A stretch of 58,788 nucleotides of DNA, counting the filler, from Sluysia triapertura (Eukaryota), in the NCBI GenBank assembly GCA_046118255.1. It is 4 parts of 4 records of this genome, joined end to end, with 100 filler letters (N's around TTAATTAATTAA, not from the genome) between each part and the next. Parts side by side here need not be neighbours in the genome. Positions count along the whole stretch, not along the records: positions 45,789 to 58,788 come from JBJNIA010065850.1; 3 more parts are not named here. One strand, given 5' to 3'. The notes below the pieces were generated by a model. It had not been told where the DNA came from. It did no database searches and worked only from the letters and a program-made list of their open reading frames with translations. Shown here piece by piece: positions 17,116 through 58,788 of the stretch (its first letter is position 1; each line of letters opens with the position of its first letter). The translations under genes and the position numbers were made by a program.

Positions 17116-18960
17116 TAATATTAATAAAAATTCATAGCAATAAATTAGTCAATAGTCCAAATATTTGTGTATATGCTTAAAAATTCTATTTATGTAAATG
17201 CTTAAAACGTCAAGTTCAATAACCTTTGAATTGGTATCTTCATGAGCATCAATTTAATATATACTTTACTTATATTTAAACATCGGAATATTTAACTTTA
17301 ATTTTAAATTATAAAAACTAATTAATATAACTAATTTTTACGTTACGTATGTTGACGTGCTTCGTAACCCTTAATCATAAGAATACTAATAACACTCGCC
17401 ATTGTATACCAATAGTACACTATACTAATTCTAATATTAATTTGTCCATGAGTAAACATTTTTCATTAAGCTATCAAATTAATTTAATTAATTAACAAAT
17501 GTACTATAGTATTTTAACAAATAAAACCTTAGAAATGGTTATATCTTCGTATCCTTCGTTTTGATTCAAATATTTTATACGCTTATTTTGTTATTACAAT
17601 TCATCATAATTCCTCAATGATGTTTATTTTATTCTATTATCATGAGTCATATCCCTTATATTTCTCCTTGTCCCTAGCTAATCCCAACATATACATAAAC
17701 GCAATATCTTCTAATATAAATTAAAATTAAAATTATAGAAAATAAATATAATTGTGCATTTTTATTAAATTATTTCGTTAAAATGTTTAATATTTATGTT
17801 AAACATTAATTTTTTATCAATATTAAAAGGCATACAGTAAAATGAAACTACTAAATCATTCACAAGTCAAAACAACTTGTAAGAAACTATTAGAATGTTT
17901 TGATAGTGGCGCATTACTTGACTGATTGACAACACTATTATTATAAAATAAGTTATTGAAATATCATCTAGTAGTATAATGTAATACAGATCTGCAATCA
18001 ATCTAATGGCATCATAAACAAAAGCTTAAAATAGTTCCTCAGACTTTCTTCTAGTACAATTGTAAGAATTTTCTTTGAACATTACAATCTATAAATTCAT
18101 AAATAATGAATATAAAGCCACAATTACAATGAGTTCTTAAGACTATTAGTTGAATCAGTATTAGTTTTACTGGAATTTATTGAATCTTTATTTTCCCCAT
18201 CCTGTTTTCTTAATTAGCAAAATCATCATCGACGTCATATTTTGGCGTTAAATGATCATCAAAAGATTCTGAAGTTTCAGTATTATTTTCATGAGATCCA
18301 CTACTTCAACACTAATCTTCTAATGTGGTTAGAACTTTTACATTGTCGCGTTCCTCTTCTGATTTTGTTAATAAAACCAAATGTTTTACTACTGTTGCAT
18401 ATGTTCTATCACAACCATTCGATTCCTGCCACTTTCTGAAAGAAACTGATGCATCTACGTAAGCTGCTGAATTGCTGTTAGATTCATTTAGCATTTATAT
18501 TACACTGAACAGTTTTATACTAAATATTATTACACTGATCAGATATTACACTGAATAATTCTAACATTTGGAGTTTGATTCCATCTTTCTGAAGACAATT
18601 CCTTATTGTATGGATTGTGGTGGCCCAACTCATTATCCTAAATTTCGTTATTCATAATACATCAACATAAACAACTGCTCAACCATATAAAATTTAAATC
18701 ACTTAGTACATTAAAATTCACTAAACTCATATTAAAAAATAAAAATTCTAGTGTTTTTCTTAACTTAAATCTATACACTGCAAATTATCTGAGAAGTCTG
18801 TCCGCCTAATATATACGCTTTACATCACTATTGGAGACCTACTATTAGGTTTTCTTAAATATATTAACTAACTGTTTACTTCGAATTAACTTTTAATTAC
18901 TTCGTACCACAACCATTTACTAGGCGTTGTTCAAATAAAGCTTTATATTTTACAAATTGC

Positions 18961-19101
18961 GCAACCGGTATTAAGGTGTTGCTTTGAAAATATATTAGTA
19001 TTTTAGGAAATTACGCAACCCGTATTAAGGTGTTGCTTTTTAAAAACTCTTCGATGAATTTATATATTACAGAACCAGTATTAAGGTGTTGCTTTTGAAA
19101 A
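18961..19101. repeat. Three spaced direct repeats, core GTATTAAGGTGTTGCTTT
   Basis: Cores at 18968, 19022 and 19078 (spacing 54 and 56 nt) with variable AT-rich spacers. Confidence 0.9.
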
Positions 19102-28576: not shown

Positions 28577-30701
28577 CTAAAATTAATATTATTTTAGTTA
28601 CTTTTAACAATCAAAAAATAAAATACAAATGAAAATTCAAAATTAAATGAAAACAAAATTTATTATCAATGATTCAAAAAATTTTACAGAAAATATTTTA
28701 AGCTGTTTTTGTTACTCGAGCATAATATTTTGAAAAATTACTTTTTTCGTATAAAAAATGATTCTATAATTTAATTTTAGTTCATTATTTATTATTTTTC
28801 AATGATTGGAATCGTTTTTTTTGAAACTACTTAAATTCTAAGTAATTTAATTTATTTTATTTAAATTAATTAAATTAATCATGTGAACTTTTGTTAATAT
28901 ATTTATGTAAATTTAAGATTGAAAATTTATTGTGGGTTTCACTCTTATAATTATTTTTGTTCATCATTCAAATTAAACTACTGTGTGTTCATAGGGTGTC
29001 AGAAATTGTGACACCTTAAAAGTTACATTACTTTATGAACACCTTGTTTAGAGTCTGTAGTTCATTATTGAAAATAATTAACTGAAAATAATTTTGATTG
29101 GTTGGAAAAAATAAATAATGAATATTGTTAATGCTTAAGAAATAAGCAATTTACAAATATTTATTTTCATCACGTGTTTGTAGTATTGTGCTTTGTAAAA
29201 TATTTTAATTATTATAAAGCACAAAATCAGATTTTCCATATATTATTCTGCAAAATATCTAATTTATACATAAATATTAGATACGTAATTATTGATTTTC
29301 AATTAGAGTTATCAATGAAAAGTATTGATAAAGTATATTTTGAATACGATAAGACTTATTTATTTGTGCATAGTGTATCACATATCAATTGCAATATAAT
29401 ACTAAATTAATTAAAAGAAGCAGACAGTAATGTACTACTAATAATAATAAATAAATAAATAATATCCAGATGGTAAAACTAAAAGTAAATAATAAATTTT
29501 TCATAATACAAATGATATGTCAAAGTTATATATAGTTTAATAAATAGCTGTATGTAGGAGTAGAATTATATTGAAATTGCATGTAAAAATTAATATATTG
29601 TTAATAGTAATATAAAATTGTCCATTAAAATAGAATAGGAAGTGATTAACTATGGAAGAGTTATTATAGAATTAGATTATTGGTTAATAAAATTAGCAGA
29701 AGAAAGTGCTATATAAGGTGCTTTTCATTATACAATTTCAACAGTGAATTGACTTGTAAATATTTTTGAATAACGCTGCTAATAATATTTTTTGGATAAT
29801 ATCAATTTACTGAAGATTCCGATTGAAGTATAATGGTAATTAGTGAAATATTCTATTTAATCTAAAATTACACTTAAAATTTAAATTGCGAGTGGTTTGT
29901 TTTATCTGTTGTCTTAATTGTAGCTTGGTTATTTTATTCTGATTTGTCTTTTCAGACTAAAGGAGAATTTAAGTTAAAACATTAGATTTAAAAAATTAAA
30001 ATAAGCCACTTTATGTCTTACATGAGTAGAACGCTCATGTCCAGATATAACTAATAAATAAATTACGACACTCTCACATAAGAGTTACTAGACTGAAGAG
30101 ATTTTGCCTAACGAATTTTAGTACATAAATACTAAATAGAAGTTGAAATAAACTTTTTACTGTCTATAAACACGACAGAAATAAGATAATACCACTACAG
30201 TATAAGAATAACAATTTAAGAAACGTTTTCATACTTTCTTTCAATATACCTTCTAAAACCCAAACGGGCATCAGGAAAATAATCATAATAATGAACTTTT
30301 TAAAATTTCATAAAGAATATTAATTTTTTGTGAAATTATTGATTAAGTTGCATTAACGGTTAAAATGAAAGCATAAATGTAGTATCAAGAAAATAGAATA
30401 AAGATATTATGAGGATATTTTTATGTTAACAAAAGTTTCTTTTTTCTAAACTTATATAATTTATCTTTTTCTTTTTCTTAGTTAAAATTAGAACTATGTA
30501 CGACTCCTTCCAGTTTTATATTTATCATGATATACTTTTAATGTTCTTTGATATTTATATTGGTAAAGTCTTTATGTTTGCAATTCTGACTTCACAACTA
30601 CAGACGAAATCCGTACACAATATCCTAAATATTTTGAATCAAAAACAAATGAAGATTGGATTAAATAAATAATTGTCTAAAAAAATTAAAACAAAATTTA
30701 C

Positions 30702-31115
30702 CATTGTTTTTTGAATTGCATAATACGGTGTAGTATATTCGATCATATCTATTATTGGAATAATGTCAAATTCACCAAACGATACTAAATGTTGATCAAT
30801 CAAACAACGAGACAAATAAAAAATTAATGCACCATAACAAGACACACAATTTTCATATTCCCCAAGAACTTCTTTTGGTGAATTAGAAGCATCTTTAATA
30901 ACAATGCTATCTAACTTTAGTGGTATACCGCTTTCCTCACTTAATTTCGATTCAGGCGTGTCATTAAAATAATCACCTTCCAAAAGAAGATTTAATGTTT
31001 TCTCTGCTGTATAAAATTCAGTACCAGGATTAAGATATTCTTTAGAAACAGATGCTGTCACAGTATCTAAGACAAATTTTGTAACCGGTGTTAAATTGTT
31101 TTTTTCAATAAGAAT
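30702..31115 (-). CDS. MSH6: MSH6-like exon A (connector domain II)
   Basis: ILIEKNNLT...LNPGTEFYTAEKTL.LL.EGDYF...SCYGALIFYLSRCLIDQHLVSFGEF...KTM; 414 nt, phase 0/0. Confidence 0.92.
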
Positions 31116-32627: not shown

Positions 32628-33662
32628 ATGTCTTACGAGAGGTATAAAGATTTAAACAGTCTTAACGATGATTATGATTATGAAGTGTATTATTACGATG
32701 ATAATCATCATCAAACCCATACGTACCCAGAGTCTTATAAGTGTGATCATGTATCAAGTGATATTAAATTGAGAAAGAATCATTGTGATCAATTAGAAAG
32801 AATGCGAAGAGCTGGTATTAAAAGTAGTTATACAGAGTTACATAAGTATATTCAATCCTTGATTGATAATGAGACATTCCCTTCAGTAATGTTACTAAAA
32901 GTTGTTGAATTTCATGAGTTAACTAAAAGAAATAAAAATGTTACTCTAGAAAATAAATACCGTACAATGAAGCAACAACTACAATATCCTTTATGTCAAC
33001 GTAATACTGATAATAGCATCCCAACGTCCTTACCTGATATTTTTAGTTCAAATATTGTTCACAGTGTCGTTCTAAACGCAGCACGAACTAATCATTCAAT
33101 CTCAAATGTAATTCAAACGCCTAATATTTTGATTGGACCAATTAGTAATAATCAAATTTTTTCGTCTACTCATACTCATTCAAGATCATTTAATGTGACA
33201 AGTGATAATGGAAAATTTCATGTTGATAAATCACGTTTTATCAAATTCGCATTATGTCTCTATGAAACCTCAATTACAGGCCAATACGTCAAGAATGGAA
33301 AATCATGTCATTATGCACACGGATTATATGAATTGGTATCAATTCCTAGAGTCAATGCAATTAGTCTTCCGTACTCACAAATTGAAGGATACGAATTTAA
33401 GGTAACAACACAGAAGTACTGTCACAGTAAAAACTTTTATAAAGTAGTTTTTAATATTATTAAACATTTATTACTTTTTGTTCGAGATTTTTATAATTTT
33501 GTTATTCTTTTTAGAAAAATCAATGGTAATACAGTAATAGCATATTCAAGTGCGAATAAACATTCTTGGCCATCAACTTTTCATGTTATTAAGCAAATTT
33601 TTAATATTAGACTTTTTGGTTACATTAATAAACAATTTAGACGTTATTTTTGTTTAGTGTGA
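32628..33662 (+). CDS. Max/Mlx-like bHLH-zipper protein with a degenerate TIS11-type CCCH zinc finger
   Basis: 344-aa uninterrupted ORF. [40 protein letters not shown] parallels Max [49 protein letters not shown]...[14 protein letters not shown] parallels TIS11 SRYKTELC...YGAKCQFAHGLGEL. A possible intron lies at 33402-33514. Confidence 0.7.
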   Translation: [344 protein letters not shown]

Positions 33663-37299: not shown

Positions 37300-37720
37300 A
37301 TTTTAAATTGAAATTGTATAAATAATCGTTTTAAAACGTGATTATATAAAGGCAACATGAAATTAAAACTTAGAAACATTTAACCTTACTGTCATAATCA
37401 ATAAAATCATTTTAAAATAAGAGTTAATAAAATAATATGAAATCAAATTTTAAGAACATAACATTCCATCAAAATCATTTTAAAATATGATTTAAAATAT
37501 TCTGTAATAAAACAAAATCATGTTAAATTAAGATTGCATAAAAATAATATGAAATTAAAATTTTAAAACATTATGATTGATCAAAATTATTTTAAAATTA
37601 AATTCTGAGCATAATATGAAAACATTATATTTAAAATTGACAATATAAAATTAAAATCATTTTAATTTTCACTATAATAATAATAAAATAAAATCATTTT
37701 AAAATAAGAATTAGAAATTA
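37300..37720. repeat. Degenerate minisatellite with AAAATCATTTTAAAAT core
   Basis: Core or close variants recur at ~37403, 37470, 37582, 37653 and 37690, among others. Confidence 0.7.
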
Positions 37721-48229: not shown

Positions 48230-51057
48230 TGTAGTGGACAACCTTTATAACTGTTAAATTTTAAAAGAAAAAATTAATTAAACCTTCAACACTTTGATAT
48301 TCACACACTTACTTCCTACACACTTACAAAACAGTTCATTTGCCTAAACTAAGCCAGATTCACAATCTCATAATATACAAACCACAGTTACATCTAATAC
48401 CATCAACTTACACCAACAGATCTATCACAAACATGTAACTCGACATTCATAACAACCAATTAATATCCACATTTGAAATTATCTACTTTACACCTTCGAA
48501 TCAATTACAACACCTTAAGTTCAACACTTGTCATTGTATGGTCACCAACAACACAATACAATACCATTCTAAAACATCAAATAAACAAATCACATAAAAC
48601 ATTGCACATTAAAATTTCAAATATACCAAGAGTTGTATTATAATTTACCTTTTCACATTTACCAAACTACTCTCTTCTAAATAGGCCTTTTATTCACGAT
48701 CTTCCAATATTCAAATGTCGTTCTCAATCATGAATTTAAATCACCATCTAAGAACTCATTCTAACATTCTCCATTTCATTCCACGACATAAATCATCTAT
48801 CTTATCTTGAAACGTTAACCACACATATAAATTCATTTAAAGCAATCTCTACTCAAAAATTTTAATTTCAAACACATTTTAAATTTATTGCAATATGTCA
48901 AGAAACCTAGAAGAATTAAAGGAAGATCGTGTGCAGTTTTAAAGAATTCAGCAATTTATGTCAATTAATAACCATAATAACCATTTTTTGTCGCCGTTGT
49001 TACAGAATCCAATTCAACTATTTTTTCAGATCTAGAATATGTTAAGAATTCAATGAAAGCGACAGAAAGATTGTGTTAAGAAAAAGACAAGAAATTTATG
49101 CAATTTTTAATATTTTCGCAGTAAAATAATATTAATAATAATAACATTGTTGCTATTATTGTTGTTATAAAATTTTATTAATTTAATTAATTTACTATAA
49201 AATAACAAAAATTGTTTCCACCATCACCATTGTTGACATTATTCATTACTGTCAACAGATTTATGTCAACACTGATGATGGCTAATCATTCATTCATATT
49301 ACTGGCCATCCAACCAGAATTAAATTTATTATATTTAGTTAAACAATTCTGGTTGGATGACCAATCACTGGTCATCATCTGAAAAAATGAATTAAAAAAT
49401 GAAAATATAAATTTTTGAACTAGATAGCAAAACAAAAATAAATTATTATTGTCTCTTGTTGTTATGTTATAGATATAGTTGCTCAAATTTCAAATGATAC
49501 ATAGCTATTACACTTACCTGAACGTATAGTTTATAATATGAAATTAAACCGTATACAAGAACAAAATGTTAATGCAGACTTTCATAAGCAAATCGAATGC
49601 AAAAACTCGGTTCAATTAATTTTAAATACCACTCAAGATGTTTATTCTGGTAAAATTAATGACAATCTCTCTTCAGTTGTTACCAATAAAAAGTATTAAA
49701 GCATTATTTTTCATGCTCAATTATCAAGAATGTTATAAAGTTTATAAATGTATTAATTCTAATTTAATATCTATTTTGGGCGTATATTCGTTTATGTATT
49801 CTAATAATGAATAAGTTGATTCACTTGATAATTATGAGTCTATTATGATGCTGTCTCCTATTTCTGATCTAGATGACTTAGAAAAATTGAAAATAAATTC
49901 TAGTATAATTATTGATTGTAGAGTTCATTCAGCGGTGATTCAAAATTTAGAACGTCACAATTTTATAAATACAATGGAACCTGTTTCTCTAAATCAATGT
50001 CTCGTAAAGTCTAGTTACTGTAATCGATCTAGTATTACGGATTCGAAATCGTACCCATTGAGTTACATTAGCAAATTAATGTATAATCTGGCTGAAAGAT
50101 TTAGTAAATGTATTTCGTTTAAGGTCAATGAACAATTTCTTTTATTTGTTCAGTTAGTTTTGCATCCATGTACTGATGTTTTCAAATCATCTTATAATCA
50201 TGAAACATGTTGTCATGTTCCAACTAACTTAGTTAGTTCAGACACCAAAACGAAAGTTGAAGATTGTCAAACTATTTCAAAGTAGTGATAATTGTTGTAG
50301 CTATGAACCTGCATGTTTCGGTAACGAATTTTTAAAATTGCATTGTTTTGATTATTAGAAAGTAAATTCATTAACTAGAGTTTTACATGCAACGTGTGCA
50401 ACACCAGTAATTACGTATATTTTCCTTCTTCAAAAATGTATTCAGTTATTCAAAAGTCTGTGCAATATTCATCATATAAAAAGACTTTCATCTATATATT
50501 TAGTAATCAATAATTTTGAAATTTTGTTACAATTGGATCATCTCTATGCTCAGAATTATCGTAATAAACCAAATGATATTAAAAAAATAAGACTAATGCT
50601 AAAGTTATGCGTTCATCTCTACAATCTCTACAATCTATTGGATAAACATAATGAATTCAAGGGTCATAAACGAGAAATTAAAAACTTAAATTTTTGTCTT
50701 ATTCAATTATTTTATAAGTTATACATACATTTTTCTTCAGATGATCCTTTTGAAGTGCAGCGGATTGGGATACATTAGGATACGGTATCAAAATTAATAG
50801 TTTTTGTCTCTACGTTAAATAAAAGTTTCGTATTTACTTATACGTTGTTTATTCTTTTATATAATTTGTTTAAAATTAAGTTATGTGGTATTAATAATAT
50901 AAGTAAAGATTGTATGAAATTTATCTTAAATTCTAAAAGAAGTTTTTACCAATTAAGAATAAGTTCAATAACGTATACACAAACATACTTATATCTACCG
51001 AAGAATAATTTTATAAATTTAAATTCAATTTATTTTAATTATAATAAAACCCCACCA
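48230..51057 (+). repeat. Putative 5' LTR (~2.8 kb)
   Basis: Starts TGTAGTGGACAAC and ends CCCCACCA 3 nt before the PBS. Shares TTCGAATCAATTACAACAC, AAATATACCAAGAGTTGTAT and CAACACTGATGATGGCTA collinearly with the 3' LTR up to ~49370. Homology beyond that point is not demonstrable. Confidence 0.7.
49845..50285 (+). CDS. Unknown 146-aa Cys/Ser-rich ORF inside the putative 5' LTR (part of a broken coding tract 49538-50778)
   Basis: ORF track, with flanking same-strand ORFs at 49538-49699 and 50524-50778. Confidence 0.45.
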   Translation: MMLSPISDLDDLEKLKINSSIIIDCRVHSAVIQNLERHNFINTMEPVSLNQCLVKSSYCNRSSITDSKSYPLSYISKLMYNLAERFSKCISFKVNEQFLLFVQLVLHPCTDVFKSSYNHETCCHVPTNLVSSDTKTKVEDCQTISK

Positions 51058-51060
51058 AAT

Positions 51061-51073
51061 TGGTGTCAGGAGT
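51061..51073 (+). promoter_or_regulatory. Primer-binding site, tRNA-Leu
   Basis: TGGTGTCAGGAGT is complementary to the ACTCCTGACACCA 3' end of eukaryotic tRNA-Leu(CAG). Confidence 0.85.
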
Positions 51074-51500
51074 TTAAGAGAACCTTGCTGTATCCTATGT
51101 AAGTCATGAAGCCAAGCCTTATTATTTATATATTTAAATGCATAAATTCTTTATGTAGCAAATGTGATCTTATCGTAGAGAGATATGCACATAAATATAA
51201 TTTTTATAATAAAAGTCTTAACAACAGCAATACACATATCTTTCGCGATAACTTTATAGACAAATCATATGTAATAATATAATTATACCTAAGATTGCTA
51301 CTAAAATCATTTTGTATGTAATGAATTCTTTAAAAATTGTAATACTATTATACCAACATCTATAGTTATAAATTCTTCCAATAATAATAACAATTATAAT
51401 AGTTACCAACAAAATACATTCACCAAGTCCATTAAATTTTTTAAATATTAAATATTTTTTAACATAATTCCAAGTCATTTAAAAAATCAAAAGAACAAAC

Positions 51501-53028
51501 ATGTTACTTTTCAATTACAAAACAACTCTTTTCATGTTACACCCTCACGTAATTCAATACGCACTAAGCATAAATAAAAGAAAACTAAATCTAAGAAAAC
51601 AGGAAAAACTTATACACTTAAACAGTGTTATCAAACCATCTGTAAACACAACATCTAACAAAAATGGTAATATCAGTCTACACAACAATATCATCACTCA
51701 ACCACTAAACAAAACATTTCCACCTTCACTATTCGAAACATATATTAAACATTCAGCGCAAGAGATTTCATACAATAACATTAAACCTCCACTAAAACAA
51801 CGAAACAACAAGAAAAACAATACACGGGCACAAAACTCCGATTTTAAACAATTAAAAGATACCACAATACAACTTCTGCTACCCAACACAAACAATGAAC
51901 AACTTCACGAAACACAAAACTATGCTATCAACTCTTCCAATAACATTGAACGTCCACAATATTTTTCAAATAGCGAAAATAACAACATGCCTCCACATAA
52001 TAATAATTCAGAATAATTAAAACAAAACACAACACAATTTTTACCACATAAAACGAACAATAAATCATCTTACAAACATCAAACTCAAAACAACTTCATC
52101 AACTCACCTCATAATCACAATCAGTACAAAACTCCATTGAAGCAACAAATATTCATACGTATAATAATGAAACCAAACAACTAACAAACCATACAACATC
52201 AACCTTATTTCTCAAAATAAACAATAAATCTTCTCACGACAGTAAAACACAAAAATCTTTTAAACCATACACCATACCTTTTGTCTGGACAACATGACTC
52301 ATAAAATTAATAAAATTTTAAGTTATAGGTTTTCTACTACCCCAACCACACCTCTGATTTACACTAAAAACGCAGTCCTAGACAAAAATAACAAAACAAA
52401 AAGGGGTAATCAACCACAAACTACTCTACATTATAAATCACAATTCACCTGGGCTCCTAATACGTATAAAATAAAGGATAAAAAATCCTTCGCTCAAGTC
52501 TGTAAACAAGGTCCCCAAATTTAATGTGCCATTATGGCCAATACAAATCAAAGGATCATTGAATCCGATTTAAAAAAGCAATTCCAAACAAATTAACACG
52601 TTCAAGGATGTATCGAAGCAATCATCCAAAAATGCAAATCTTAAAATCAATATACAAGACCAAAAGACCAGTAAGTCTAATTTCAAACAAGTCAATACTT
52701 CTAAGAATACACTCAATCAAACGTTAAAACATAAACAACAAAATCGTTGAACGAAATCAAAAACAATTCAATACTCAAAACAAAGAACAAAAAAATTATT
52801 CTAATAATCAGACAATTCAAGTCAAAAAATCAAACAAAACAAAACGTATTATTTCAAACGAAACCATAGATCAGAACAATCATATCAAAACAATAACAAG
52901 CCGCTCAATTCTCAAACAGAAACAAATTTTTACCAGGAACAATAATCGACTCAAACACGCCATTTGAGCGACACGTGTGCACTAACATCAACGCAGCCAC
53001 CAATTCGAAAACCCGAAATAACAAAACA
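51501..53028 (+). pseudogene. Long N/Q/K/T-rich leader ORF (fragmented) upstream of gag
   Basis: ORFs 51501-52016 and 52294-52524 plus intervening frames share a low-complexity composition and strand skew. Confidence 0.5.
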
Positions 53029-53214
53029 ATAAATATAATAATAAAATGCATAGCGTGCAATATAAATTCGCGCCTTAAAATCAAAACTCCCACCCTATTA
53101 CATAGGTTAAGTAAACACCCTCAGGCATGGTTTACTTATCAGGCTCAACCGTTATGTGATTACGAAATTCCACACGGAGCAATTATATCAGTTAATCACC
53201 AACTACCTGGCGGC
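53029..53214 (+). CDS. Ubiquitin-like domain ending in LPGG, in frame with the start of gag
   Basis: INIIIKCI...WFTYQAQPLCDYEIPHGAIISVNHQLPGG versus ubiquitin MQIFVKTL...[29 protein letters not shown]. Confidence 0.65.
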
Positions 53215-54080
53215 ACTGAACATGATCAATTAACAAATATCAGTACTCCTTCGTCATCTCAATTTTTCTTGGTCGATACTGGTTCTCCAAGCACATGGTT
53301 TTGGTTGCTGAAGCCATGTTCAAAACTAGTGCGATTAAACATCAAACTAAAAAGTTTAATCGCACATTAGCAATGTTGCCGCAGGAACTATTAGATAAGA
53401 TTAGCCCAAAAATTCAAGCGTGTATTGCTTCAAAATCTCCGTATGACGAACTCATGCAAATAGTCGTACACAATACCGCCCAAATTCGGAAAAAGTCTTT
53501 CAAAACTACTTTAAGGTACAAACATTATGTACCATTTCACCTTCCGAATTTTTGGCATAAATAAAAACGGACTTAGCACCCTTCGGTTGTGACATCGACG
53601 AAAATCGTGATGTTTTAAAAAGATTATTCCTCGATACTATGCCTCTTACAGTTCAAGGCATACTCGTAGGAATTCAAAATACTAAAATCGACGAACTGGC
53701 TAAGATCGCCGATAACATTATTGCTGTATGGAACAAGGACCATCAACAACCTCTGTACGCAATGAACGATTCTTCTTCAAACAGCCAGAAATACATAACA
53801 ACAACAATAACCAACAACGAAGCACAGAACCTTCTGTTACAAGTCTAAAATCTCACGAAGCAGGTCGCAGACCTTACAAAAATTTTATTCTCAAAATCAA
53901 GAGAGAACTCACCAACAAGAAGAACAAGTTCTCCCACATTCTCAACGGGTTCATCCAACTCAAATAAATCTATTAAAAATAAAACACCCTTTAACGGAAT
54001 CTGCTACTATAATAACAGATTCCAACAACAGGTTAAATCTTGCTTACTAGGATGTAGATTTCCAAACAAATCTACAAATC
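53215..54080 (+). pseudogene. gag: gag (capsid and nucleocapsid), frameshifted
   Basis: PSTWF/LVAEAMF...TKKF...LPQE...PYDEL, then LFL..MP..VQ.IL...IDELAKIADNI, and the knuckle GICYYNNRF....KSC..GC (~53996). These resemble CsRn1-lineage gag. Confidence 0.8.
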
Positions 54081-54269
54081 TACAAATCTAACAATCAAAA
54101 ACTTGTGCGTATACCATGCAAATTTTCAAAAAAGCTCCAAAAGATGCATGGATACTGCATCCACTTTAAACACAATTTAAAGTCCCCATCAAAAAACTGA
54201 AATTGCTAGACCGAAACACTTGGCAATTAATGGTATTTTCACTGTGCCGATCACTTTCACTGATTTCAA

Positions 54270-56910
54270 ATACTCCAAATTGGATTATCTAATTGACCTC
54301 AACGCTTTATCAGAAACACACCGCAGACATGTTCCTTTCTTACAGCAGCTAACGGAACAGCTATTGCCTGCTATGGCTCGAGACAATTACAATTCAAATT
54401 GTCACACTTCAATAAAATCTTCGAATGGACTTTTCTAATTACTGCAGTTCAACAACCGATAACAGGAGCCGATTTTCTAACCCATTACAACCTCCTAGTC
54501 GATTTCCACAACAAAACTTTAACACAGTCCTTCTAACACCTAAAAAATATAAAAATTAAATTAGAGGATCTCAACAGTAACAATATAGATCAATATTTAC
54601 AACAAATTCACCCCAAATTACTACTCGAACAATTCAATCCAGAATATGTTCCTAAATTCGAACACTTTATAAAAACTATACCTATACCACCATGCAGACA
54701 AAGACGACGAGAACTAGCTCAGAAAATACGTTCTCAGGCAGAGACAGAATTCCTTGAAATGGAAAGACAAGGAATAGTGCGACGCTCTTCTTCCTCATGG
54801 GCCTCACCTCTGCAAATCGTCAAAGAGAAAGATGGAACGTGGTGACTACAGAATGCTTAGTAAAGTCACTCTTCCAGACGCATATCCTATGCCACTCATA
54901 ACAGACATCTTTCATAGATTCACTGGTTGTACAATATTCTCATCAATAGACCTTGCAAAATCATACCATCAAATCCCAGTACATACTGAGGATATACCAA
55001 AAACAGCCGTAACAACTCCTTTCGGTCTGTTTGAGTATTTACGCATGCCTTTCGGTCTAAGAAATGCAGCACAAACTTTCCAGCGTCACATTGAGAAAGT
55101 TCTTCAAGGCTTAACTTTCACCACAGCCTACATTGATGATATCATAATTTCAAACGACACCAAACACATCTGGAACAAGTATTCCAACGACTATCCGACA
55201 ATAATTTATTAATTAAAATTAACAAATGTCAATTTTTCAAGAATAAAATAACTTTTCTAGGCCACAATATATCTGTTGACGGGATAGAACCACTGGAAAC
55301 CCGTACAACAGCAATAAGAGACTTTCCACAATCCAAAACAGTTACACAGATGAAAAGTTTCTTGGGCCTAGTTAATTATTGTCGACGCTTTATCCCGAAA
55401 CTATCAGAAATAATAGCACCGTTAACAATTCTATCATCGGGAAAGAAAAATCAGCAAATCAATTGGAATACTAAATCTCTGGAATCCTTCGAACAAACAA
55501 AACAAGAAATTATGAAGATGGAAAGTTTAGCATTTCCACAACAACATTTAACGTTCACCTTAACAAGTGACGCTTCAAATACAGCAATAGGTGCGATACT
55601 AACACAAAATCAACAAGAAACAACTCCCGTAAACTTTCTGCACAACAAACTAGATATTCGCATTGACCATGAATTACTAGCAATCTATCTTTCCGTTAAA
55701 CATTTTGAGTATCTGTTACTCCCAGCGCAATTTACGCTCAGAACAGACACCAAACCGTTGTTGCACATCTTTACAATTAAAAAACCCACTCCAAGACAAC
55801 AACGACACATCAGCTACTTGTCCCAATTCAACTTTAACATAGAATTCATCCCGGGACAAGAAAATGTGGTCGCCGATTTTCCAGTCGAGTTCCGGTCAAT
55901 ATTCACTCTCGAGGAGTTACAAAACAATCCACGATCTAGTCTAGAAATTTCCAAATTTTCAACAAAATCATCATTACAAAATGGAATTTTCTTTGACTAT
56001 CAATTATCTGGTACTTCTCGACCTGTGCTAGGACAAACGCTCCGGATCAAAGCTGTCGAACATATTCACAATATGACACATGCCGGAGCTAAGGCCACTT
56101 ATGAATAACTACACTCAAAAGTAGTATGGCCTTCAATGCGCCAAGACATCAAACACTGGTGTAAAGCCTGTTTGACTTGTCAATTGGTGAAAATACAAAA
56201 AAACATAAAATCTCACACGCCAACTCTTCGATACCATACAAATGGATATAGTCGGACCACTACCACAATCTCGTGGTTACATTTACATTTTAACTATATT
56301 GGACCGACACAGCAGATGGCCAATCAGATCATTTACAACAGACACCATATCCAGAATCTTAATAACAAACTGGATTTCACGTTTCGTTGTACCCAAAAGA
56401 ATTATCACTGATCAAGGAGCTCAGTTCGAATCTAGCCTCTTCAACAATTTACTCAAACAACTTGGCAGCGCTAGACTACGAACAATCTAATGGTATGATA
56501 GAGAGATTTCATAGAACTCTAAAAAACTTCTTGCGCGCATTATCAATAAATCATGATTGGATCGGTGCCTTACCCCTAATTCTATTAGGCTGGCGCAATA
56601 TCCCTCATTCTTCAACATGATATTCACCAGCTCAAATTGTATTAAGAACCAACACCAGATTACCCTTTGAATTATTCGAAAATGATAATCCTACAGAAAA
56701 AAATATATTAACCTCCTTTGCGGCAATATTTTAATGACCTAAACAAATCAACACGTCACAATGAGGTTCCTCACATTTTTATACCAAAAAACATCTTAGA
56801 CAGCAAATTCGTGTGGCTCAAAACAGAAAATCCAAAATCTCTTCAACCAAGATACACCGGTCCCTACAAAGTCACTCAGTTTAATCAAAACCTGCAACAA
56901 TGCTAGTTGA
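54270..56910 (+). pseudogene. pol: pol (protease, RT, RNase H, integrase), frameshifted
   Basis: PR: YLID.., GADFL.HYNLLVD. RT: SSSWASPL.IVK, DAYPMP, IDLAKSYHQIP, MPFGLRNAAQTFQR, YIDD. RH: SDASNTAIGAIL, ELLAIY, TD.KPL. IN: H...H..C..C, DIVGPLP, TDQGAQFES, SNGMIERFHRTLK. Confidence 0.96.
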
Positions 56911-57037
56911 AGAATATTCTCATAATTCAACAACAAGAAAATCAGTAACGTTTAACAAAACCGCTACCTTTCTAAACGAATCCAAATGAAGGTACCAGAT
57001 TCATTTTAGAAATAAACACATATCGCTTCGCGTCTTC

Positions 57038-57049
57038 AGAGGGGGCTGA
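57038..57049 (+). promoter_or_regulatory. Polypurine tract
   Basis: AGAGGGGGCTGA immediately before the TG of the 3' LTR. Confidence 0.85.
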
Positions 57050-58788
57050 TGTAGTGGCCAACTTTCATAACCACTAAAAATTTATTAAAAATCAAATTAT
57101 TTTCACAATTTCACAACAGCTAAATCACAATCATATTCAACACTACCAATTTACATTAACTAATTCACCAGAAATATTACTCGACATTCACAATAATCAA
57201 ACAACAAACTCATTCGAAATAAACCATCTAATACTTTCAAACCCTTCATTTTACACTACGCTTTGGAAATCAACATTTAATAATCGATAACATTCATTTA
57301 ATAGTTTATTTGCTTTAACCAAATTACAATCATAATCACATAACACATAACACATAATTACATCTAATTCCATTCTACAACACTAATAAATCTACACGAA
57401 ACATATAAAACACCTACTTCACAACTTCGAATCAATTACAACACTTCAAACTTACTACTAATCCATGCATAATCACCAAAATTATCAAAAACATCAAATA
57501 GACAAACCAGACAAAACATAGTATAATAACATCTTAAATATACCAAGAGTTGTATCATAATTTTTCTTCTTGATTCATTAAATTACAACCTTCTCAATAA
57601 GCCTTTTACCCACGATATTTCAATACGTAAGTCTTGTTTTCAAATACAAACCCTAATTAAATTCGAAAAGCTCATATTAACATTCTTTATTTCAATTCAA
57701 GACTCAAATCATTATTATATCTTCAAAAAGGTTAATTATACTTAACAATTCTTTCAAAACAATTATTATTCAGAAATTTAGTTTCAAATACACTTTAATT
57801 TAATTCAACACATTAAAATCCTTCAAGAAGTTTAGGAAAATCTAATACAGTTTTAAAGAATTCAATGAAATAGCAACGATGTTATCGTTGCAGTTCCATT
57901 CAGTTTTGTCAACTTTTATATTTTATTTAACTTTTTATATGTAAGAACCAAGAATGAGAAGATCGTGTACATTTTGTTTTAAAAAAAGAGAAAGGAAAGT
58001 TTATGTATTAATTCGTTTTTTTTCTTTAGTAATAATAACAATAACAATACTGTCGTTGTTATTATTATTCCCATTAATTAATTAATTATTATTATTAAAA
58101 TTTTAATGCATCTTATAAAGTAGTCACCACCATCACCAATGTTGACGTTATAATCATGACCATCAGTATCTTGACAACACTGATGATGGCTATCCTTACC
58201 TAATTTTGTTCTCCACAATTTAATCACCAATTTTTACATGTCACCCAATCAGAGCTGATATTGTTAAATGTTCTGTCCTGAAGCTCTGATTGGGTGACCA
58301 ATCAGCCATTATCGTACAAATACAATTTTATAATTTTTAATTAAAAAGTACAAAAGAGGAAAACAACACAAGAAGTAACGGTAACAAATTTTCAAAAAGA
58401 TACCAAAATTTACGAAACGACAGAATAAAAAATTTGGAGTATATACTATCGAAAACTCAAATCCTCTCGATCGCGGCACTAAATTAGATTAGTATTATAA
58501 CATGCTTTTGAAAGGGAAATTCGTTTTAAGTGAAATTTTTAAAGCCTATAATGATATATTATCATTCATTGATATGTCCAATGATGTTAAACCACACATT
58601 CATAACTTCCACCAAGAAATCGAATCTGATGAAACAAATCATATGGGAGAATTAAGAAGAATGATTAAAACCATTGATGATCCTAACCACTTATTATATC
58701 TTATTAATCTTACTTTAGATCCAGCTTTTAGTTATAGTTTTAATTCAACATGGTATTATCTTATGATAATTAAAGATGATTATGTTGT
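57050..58788 (+). repeat. 3' LTR (end not seen within the window)
   Basis: Starts TGTAGTGGCCAAC after the PPT; collinear with the 5' LTR to ~58305. Confidence 0.8.
58502..58788 (+). CDS. Unknown ORF, open to the window end, downstream of the 3' LTR hairpins
   Basis: ATG at 58502: MLLKGKFVLSEIFKAYNDILSFIDMSNDVKPHIHNFHQEIESDETNHMGELRRMIKTIDDPNH..., 95 codons without a stop. Not in the ORF track because it is unterminated. Confidence 0.5.
   Translation, partial: MLLKGKFVLSEIFKAYNDILSFIDMSNDVKPHIHNFHQEIESDETNHMGELRRMIKTIDDPNHLLYLINLTLDPAFSYSFNSTWYYLMIIKDDYV

Follow-up and report, generated by a model that had tools for sequence, protein, structure and literature searches.

A Gly-Gly-ended ubiquitin-like domain precedes Gag in a lineage of Ty3/Gypsy retrotransposons

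A decayed element in Sluysia triapertura

The window, the whole 58,788-nt stretch of Sluysia triapertura DNA analysed here (four parts of assembly GCA_046118255.1 joined end to end), contains a decayed Ty3/Gypsy element extending from about 52900 to 58318 (Table 1). Behind gag, the order protease, reverse transcriptase, RNase H and integrase is the one that defines Ty3/Gypsy elements (Metaviridae), and the pieces of pol align to a related protein, P0001, at 38–72% identity per piece (tblastn). The catalytic motif of the protease is not recognisable in this decayed pol; a candidate aspartic-protease site, FFLVDTGS (weak TAXi_N match, E = 0.15), was rejected, as it aligns with the capsid motif of the lineage. 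Both gag and pol are frameshifted and contain stops, so this copy cannot make the leader–domain–Gag fusion described below; it is a dead member of the lineage.

Table 1. Features of the window, with the evidence for each
Feature	Position	Strand	Evidence
MSH6 exon, host gene	30642–31115	−	
CCCH zinc-finger ORF, host gene	32628–33662	+	
Diverged LTR-like copy, upstream	48230–49382	+	~71% identical to 3′ LTR
Stop-poor frames 49815–50285, 50359–51279 and 51483–52181	49815–52181	+	between upstream LTR-like copy and domain
Stop-free stretch before domain, same frame, no ATG	52897–53028	+	multi-copy in public run
Ubiquitin-like domain, decayed, Gly-Gly end	53029–53214	+	profile score against shuffles; relatives' alignment; alignment-guided AlphaFold and Foldseek
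16-residue spacer after Gly-Gly, begins TEHDQ	53215–53262	+	relatives' spacers 12–49 residues
Gag capsid N-terminal motif, long 13-residue type, FFLVDTGSPSTWF	53263–53301	+	invariant W in relatives' alignment
Rest of gag: DUF7041 region, then two Cys/His knuckle-like blocks; several frames, stops	53304–54153	+	Pfam DUF7041 E = 1.7e-6; tblastn of P0042, P0043, P0044; tree placement
Broken pol: protease region, reverse transcriptase, RNase H, integrase	54285–56885	+	Pfam RVT_1, RT_RNaseH, rve; tblastn of P0001
Polypurine tract	57038–57045	+	sequence; before 3′ LTR
3′ LTR, TGTA...TACA ends, right end set by eye	57050–58318	+	sequence
ORF with weak PSME4 HEAT match, just past 3′ LTR	58493–58786	+	

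No target-site duplication was found, and the flanks of the 3′ LTR and of its upstream counterpart differ; at ~71% identity and with no such duplication, the upstream copy may be a separate insertion. Both carry a short inverted repeat at their ends (58288–58303, TGATTGG...CCAATCA, in the 3′ LTR; 49349–49367 in the upstream copy). A primer-binding-site scan with a single tRNA-Trp motif, which we presume to be the primer-site sequence, gave three matches against 0.82 expected, none of them suitably placed. The stop-poor region between the upstream copy and the domain includes 307 codons with two stops, equalled in 0 of 2,000 shuffles. Its frames have no Pfam match and could derive from a captured leader now decayed or from host exons unrelated to the element; its composition turns to the A/C skew of the element near 51480. 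DNA outside the element is AT-rich, mostly 17–33% GC, and small dispersed or tandem repeat families occur at 18949–19100, 31008–31110 and 37324–37705.

The ubiquitin-like segment (INIIIKC...NHQLPGG) is 62 residues long, with its glycine codons at 53209–53214. Segment, spacer and capsid motif follow one another in a plus-strand frame that is stop-free from 52897 to 53370; the coding frame of gag breaks at ~53300, directly past the capsid motif. Compared with the family, the domain has a gap of ~6 residues before its CDY stretch, which contributes to its short length. An earlier note on this DNA had placed the start of the open reading frame at 52975, which did not hold: the codon there is GTG, and the frame lacks an ATG ahead of the domain. 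The stop-free stretch before the domain is likely the end of a leader, and the mature window Gag is predicted to begin at 53215, with Thr as its first residue.

In one public run, 1,250 contigs align to 52400–54000, mostly 80–95% alike, so the family of the window element has many copies, which include the 600 bases before the domain. Of 346 letter differences for this run, the best 40 were available. In length, its contigs differ from the window copy at 53082 and 53095, in the first half of the domain, and at 53298, at the frame break.

Relatives of the element and identity of the domain

On its own, the window segment is unrecognisable. It has no match in Pfam, in the Atlas or in a word-index search of longer proteins, and against PDB sequences it has no ubiquitin match and one unrelated match at E = 1.5. 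Its single-sequence structure model reaches a pLDDT of 48.8, and fold searches with it returned weak OB-like rows only. The assignment of the segment as ubiquitin-like therefore needs relatives.

The window's reverse transcriptase–RNase H frame gave 41 matches, including P0001 and P0002 at 45–46% identity, and a metagenome scan with these two gave 45 loci, three of them close; IMG/VR held no relative of the window Gag piece and one distant pol locus. In L003, one frame encodes the C-terminal half of a ubiquitin-like domain, Gly-Gly, a Met and a full Gag (Pfam ubiquitin, E = 7e-5). The N-terminal half-domain is absent in frame, where the upstream DNA is AT-rich and closed, and BLASTP of the window junction against the L003 junction gave no alignment. 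The sequences of L001 and L002 begin too late to cover the domain region. The L003 Gag led to P0043, which has 497 open codons encoding a 116-residue leader, a full domain that aligns to ubiquitin through Gly-Gly, and Gag. It occurs in eight records at 99–100% identity; an Atlas search with its residues 105–300 returned no usable match.

Some features of these loci lie apart from the domain. A 10-base stretch resembling the same presumed tRNA-Trp primer site follows TACA at L003 162–171, where the half-domain begins; if this site is real, the first half-domain was formerly in the LTR or has been lost. L004 98–1027 is an unrelated retroelement locus with an ORF before pol that carries WASPPC and FFIENP motifs, which we liken, from general knowledge, to those of a cytosine methyltransferase.

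We surveyed Gag relatives with a seven-sequence profile, including two window pieces, run on 1.84 billion representatives, and examined the best 150; because this profile held half of the domain, retrieval favours proteins that have it. Capsid motif types, assigned by regular expression, divide these 150 into 42 with the long motif of the window type, 73 with the standard short motif and 35 with neither. Gly-Gly stands 12–49 residues ahead of the motif in 37 of the 42 long-motif Gags. The gene calls of the other five start at a Met 19–33 residues before the motif, too late to tell, and one of them is the L003 call, whose DNA has Gly-Gly right before that Met. Domain and Gly-Gly also occur in 3 of the 73 short-motif Gags, and an aliphatic-x-Gly-Gly sequence is found in none of 38 plain Gags having at least 33 upstream residues.

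Positions of Gly-Gly were picked by hand, and the second Gly-Gly was taken for P0077, P0100 and P0139. The invariance of Gly-Gly, on which the earlier note had made its claim depend, extends to the window, L003 and all 40 listed relatives; since those 40 are defined by carrying it, the 37 of 42 long-motif Gags are a less circular measure. In 7 of 40 the gene call begins within the domain, and most relatives are single metagenome contigs. Leader, domain, Gly-Gly and Gag form one open frame in P0043, in L003 (half-domain) and in 39 more proteins. The leader–domain–Gag precursor that the note had proposed is supported by the relatives; the frameshifted window copy is unable to make it. A Gly-Gly-ended ubiquitin-like unit before the capsid protein is lineage-wide, in at least 40 Gypsy families.

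Several lines of evidence bear on the nature of the domain. First, a domain-only profile of 36 relatives, from which the window, P0043, P0074, P0161 and P0099 were left out, places the window frame at the top of the 1,179 stop-free segments in the window (E = 1.6e-4). Its 18.6 bits compare with a maximum of 8.0 for 5,000 full shuffles and of 11.0 for 5,000 others in which the final Gly-Gly was kept, so that none of 10,000 shuffles attains this score; across 46 loci, the same profile picks L003 alone. These results confirm the note's central claim of a ubiquitin-like segment with Gly-Gly in frame before the gag motif, the likeness to ubiquitin coming through the relatives' profile and not from the segment alone.

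Second, a 28-row profile that excludes the two near-canonical members matches single ubiquitin chains in the PDB at E values of about 1e-8 to 1e-10. Pfam ubiquitin is found at E ≤ 0.01 in 12 of 39 relatives scanned, 5 of which exceed the curated cut-off.

Third, where the single-sequence model was useless, an AlphaFold model guided by the 28-row alignment has strands and helix in β-grasp order with pLDDT 76–88 over residues 31–80. Foldseek places ISG15, SUMO and ubiquitin at the head of its matches to this model (probability about 1.0; best E = 0.004, none ≤ 0.001). The window segment is accordingly modelled with a β-grasp fold, the model being driven by the family alignment.

The domains are highly diverged, with a median pairwise identity of 20%, an invariant Gly-Gly and core positions that remain hydrophobic. 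Numbering ubiquitin positions from P0074, and relying on general knowledge for the roles of positions 42, 44 and 70 in ubiquitin, we find Thr or Ser in 24 of 37 at the Ile44 position and never Ile (Thr in the window), an aromatic residue in 26 of 37 at the Arg42 position, and mostly polar residues at position 70. The window domain, 23–26% identical to the two near-canonical relatives, is not ubiquitin proper, having neither its near-invariant sequence nor the Ile44 patch; only P0074 and P0161 come near ubiquitin (Pfam, 80–82 bits). The best PDB match of L003 is a 130-residue chain annotated 'ubiquitin-like domain-containing protein' (E = 0.068), which we take to be FUBI-eS30. This is only a hint of a FUBI origin, and the family profile lists ubiquitin first.

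The Gly-Gly junction and its upstream leaders

At the fourth position from its end, the tail of the domain has Leu or Ile in 38 of 40, and at the fifth Arg or Lys in 32 of 40. One variable residue separates the Leu or Ile from Gly-Gly; it is Arg in only 13 of 40, and in the window copy it is Pro. What follows Gly-Gly is restricted, in counts uncorrected for kinship: Pro in 0 of 40 against a spacer background of 11% (p about 0.01), one of Ser, Met, Ala, Gly, Thr or Val in 33 of 40 against 34%, and a primary destabilising residue in 1 of 40 against 21%. Ubiquitin proteases cut poorly before Pro, and the small residues listed stabilise a new N-terminus. A tail resembling a ubiquitin-protease site and a restricted next residue are marks expected for protease cleavage after Gly-Gly.

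We therefore consider it probable, on these sequence grounds, that a host protease of the deubiquitinase type cuts after Gly-Gly and frees Gag with a defined, stable N-terminus. Elements of the lineage would encode leader, domain, Gly-Gly and Gag in one frame; a host deubiquitinase or related protease would cut after Gly-Gly, probably during or soon after translation, and Gag would be released ahead of assembly, at a stage at which the element's own protease is still inactive. The domain would then be a cleavable spacer, letting translation start far upstream and cross a swappable leader with capsid assembly unspoiled. The pattern of conservation points to selection on the fold, the tail and the next residue. 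Counting against cleavage, the surfaces contacted by host proteases have drifted, with an aromatic residue at the Arg42 position in most relatives and a variable residue before Gly-Gly.

In the usual view, translation of LTR retrotransposon Gag begins at its own AUG, and the element's protease alone processes the product. That the element's aspartic protease cuts at the Gly-Gly junction seems to us highly improbable: these elements do encode a protease region, but retroviral-type proteases work once assembly has taken place and prefer a cut flanked by hydrophobic residues, and a folded ubiquitin-like domain with its tail motif would be left unexplained.

The start codon bears on another reading, in which a single old capture of ubiquitin or FUBI mRNA left the domain as a neutral relic, Gag is made from an internal AUG, and the long leaders arise by chance read-through or as assembly chimeras. 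A Met lies exactly after Gly-Gly in 6 of 40 relatives and somewhere in the spacer in 16 of 40, L003 lacks the N-terminal half-domain in frame, and the relatives being mostly single metagenome contigs also suits this reading. However, 24 of 40 have no Met between Gly-Gly and the capsid motif and hence cannot start Gag at an internal AUG there, frames of 400–1,300 codons remain open, Gly-Gly and the hydrophobic core are retained in lineages with Gags about 40–90% identical, and two leader mosaics recur in a second record (P0206, P0208). We regard a relic as improbable. P0044 begins at a Met, and the corresponding residue in its sister P0069 is the Ser that follows Gly-Gly; together with the cases of Met after Gly-Gly, this suggests that the domain was fused at the old start of Gag.

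Upstream of the domain, the open frame has a median length of 120 residues and reaches 876, with at least 100 residues in 21 of 40. Among the 26 leaders longer than 40 residues, one pair only is similar. P0062 and P0063, for example, have Gags 92% and domains 82% identical and unrelated leaders, although clustering at 50% identity favours pairs that differ in their leaders, and leaders are shared within 90% clusters. Fragments of host genes occur in 6 of the 21 long leaders: histone H2A, 5′-nucleotidase, Rrp44 plus CNOT1, SCC3-like HEAT, RING and Hsp90. Some of these mosaics may be assembly chimeras; the two that recur in a second record possibly come from the same organism. A hydrophobic 19-residue stretch is present in 9 of the 21 long leaders (P0062, P0063, P0065, P0066, P0074, P0075, P0094, P0098 and P0161), against 4.9 expected from shuffles, and may reflect read-through of U-rich DNA or a membrane anchor.

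The domain might stay on Gag as a binding or trafficking module, for the proteasome, ESCRT or as a folding aid, with Gly-Gly as a flexible hinge; uncleaved ubiquitin-like domains are common among host proteins, and the fold is retained here. Yet such a module gives no reason for an invariant Gly-Gly, for the avoidance of Pro or for a stabilising next residue, its receptor-binding patch is lost, and leaders of up to 876 residues would remain on the capsid, which makes it a rather unlikely reading. Slightly better placed, and still unlikely, is one in which the cut occurs and the released leader–domain–Gly-Gly is a counter-defence modifier, conjugated to host proteins or soaking up activating enzymes or deubiquitinases. 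Cleavage would leave a free Gly-Gly end, Arg is present at ubiquitin position 72 in 27 of 40, and the leaders include fragments of chromatin and RNA-decay proteins (H2A, CNOT1, Rrp44, SCC3-like). Activating enzymes require conserved surfaces, however, whereas those of the domain drift to ~20% identity with the Arg42 and Ile44 positions lost, and the leaders have no common content.

Origins of the domain and comparison with known systems

We built an IQ-TREE phylogeny of Gag from 79 rows (40 with the domain, 5 Met-start calls, 33 of 70 plain short-motif Gags and one window frame), as a quick run with SH-aLRT support and a midpoint root. Window Gag groups with five domain-bearing Gags in a 99% set, and short-motif and long-motif Gags split at 99%. 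The three standard Gags that bear the domain cluster together at 100% within the short-motif group, and this nesting suggests two origins of the domain, a tentative conclusion because plain gene calls could hide an upstream domain. The ubiquitins of P0074 and P0161 are 61% identical to each other and 21–35% identical to the domains of six sisters, while the corresponding Gags are 52–67% identical. The simplest reading is that a freshly captured ubiquitin would have replaced the domain in these two; a near-canonical ubiquitin inside a clade of diverged domains suggests that any Gly-Gly-ended ubiquitin fold suffices.

The lineage shares its Gag family, pol domain order, polypurine tract and LTR with other DUF7041 (PF23055) Ty3/Gypsy elements, which we take to be the CsRN1/Kabuki-like group. 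It differs from standard DUF7041 elements in its longer capsid motif, its two Cys/His blocks and its leader–domain–Gly-Gly front; 70 of the 73 standard short-motif Gags have no such domain in the called proteins. The two Cys/His blocks are seen in the Gags of P0043, L001, L003 and the window (53500–54153), and a single one in the standard DUF7041 Gags P0046 and P0047. P0090, of 1,865 residues, combines two DUF7041 Gags, RNase H, a PNMA-like Gag and reverse transcriptase, and likely represents nested or chimeric elements.

Several known systems resemble parts of this arrangement. In cytopathic BVDV, host ubiquitin hydrolases cut between ubiquitin and NS3 and yield the authentic NS3 N-terminus (PMC8310069). 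Pestivirus inserts such as BVDV Osloss and CP Rit likewise place a captured ubiquitin or ubiquitin-like unit in frame before a viral protein for host hydrolases to cut, were acquired independently and can have extra host fragments upstream (S27a in CP Rit); they are sporadic, recent and near-identical to the host sequence, and belong to an RNA virus (PMC8310069, PMC13517609). By contrast, the Gypsy unit is fixed across a deep lineage, stands at ~20% identity and precedes a capsid protein. FUBI-eS30 is also a linear fusion cut at a diglycine, its processing requires the diglycine and USP36, and FUBI has diverged yet is still processed (PMC8354635). In the ubiquitin– and FUBI–ribosomal fusions, which are encoded by host genes, the domain forms the extreme N-terminus (PMC8354635), whereas the Gypsy domain lies inside a mobile-element protein, with a variable leader ahead of it.

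Mosaic leaders are in keeping with LTR-mediated mRNA capture by template switching, which likewise produces host-mRNA chimeras in LTR elements, frequently with the reading frame kept (Tan et al. 2016, PMC5131818). The retrocopies in that study are flanked by discontinuous elements (PMC5131818); in the Gypsy leaders, captured host sequence reads in frame through a predicted cleavage unit and on into a complete Gag. OTU or Ulp1 protease domains link Ginger, Helitron and other transposons to the ubiquitin system as well; those elements encode the protease (PMC2836005), whereas the Gypsy lineage would carry the substrate.

Within the literature that we covered, with Repbase and most subscription journals outside it, we found no description of a ubiquitin-like domain fused to retrotransposon Gag. 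The lineage-wide Gag architecture is apparently undescribed; neither the element class nor the processing trick is new in itself. To our knowledge, a first cut by host ubiquitin machinery is otherwise known solely from sporadic pestivirus mutants and ribosomal fusions, and here a deep lineage appears to pass the first cut of its Gag to that machinery. More speculatively, and with considerable doubt, the lineage may be a natural ubiquitin-fusion cassette: a host-cleaved spacer with a slot in which swapped host mRNA fragments (histone, RNA-decay, cohesin and chaperone pieces, as in the leaders) would be made as separate proteins, possibly silencing decoys, with at least two Gypsy origins and refreshment by new host ubiquitin. 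For annotation, Gag calls that start at a Met after Gly-Gly conceal the domain. For the biology of ubiquitin proteases, the lineage offers ~40 naturally diverged putative substrates with which to probe minimal deubiquitinase needs, and for the elements themselves the arrangement would be a route to carry and express captured host sequence with autonomy retained.
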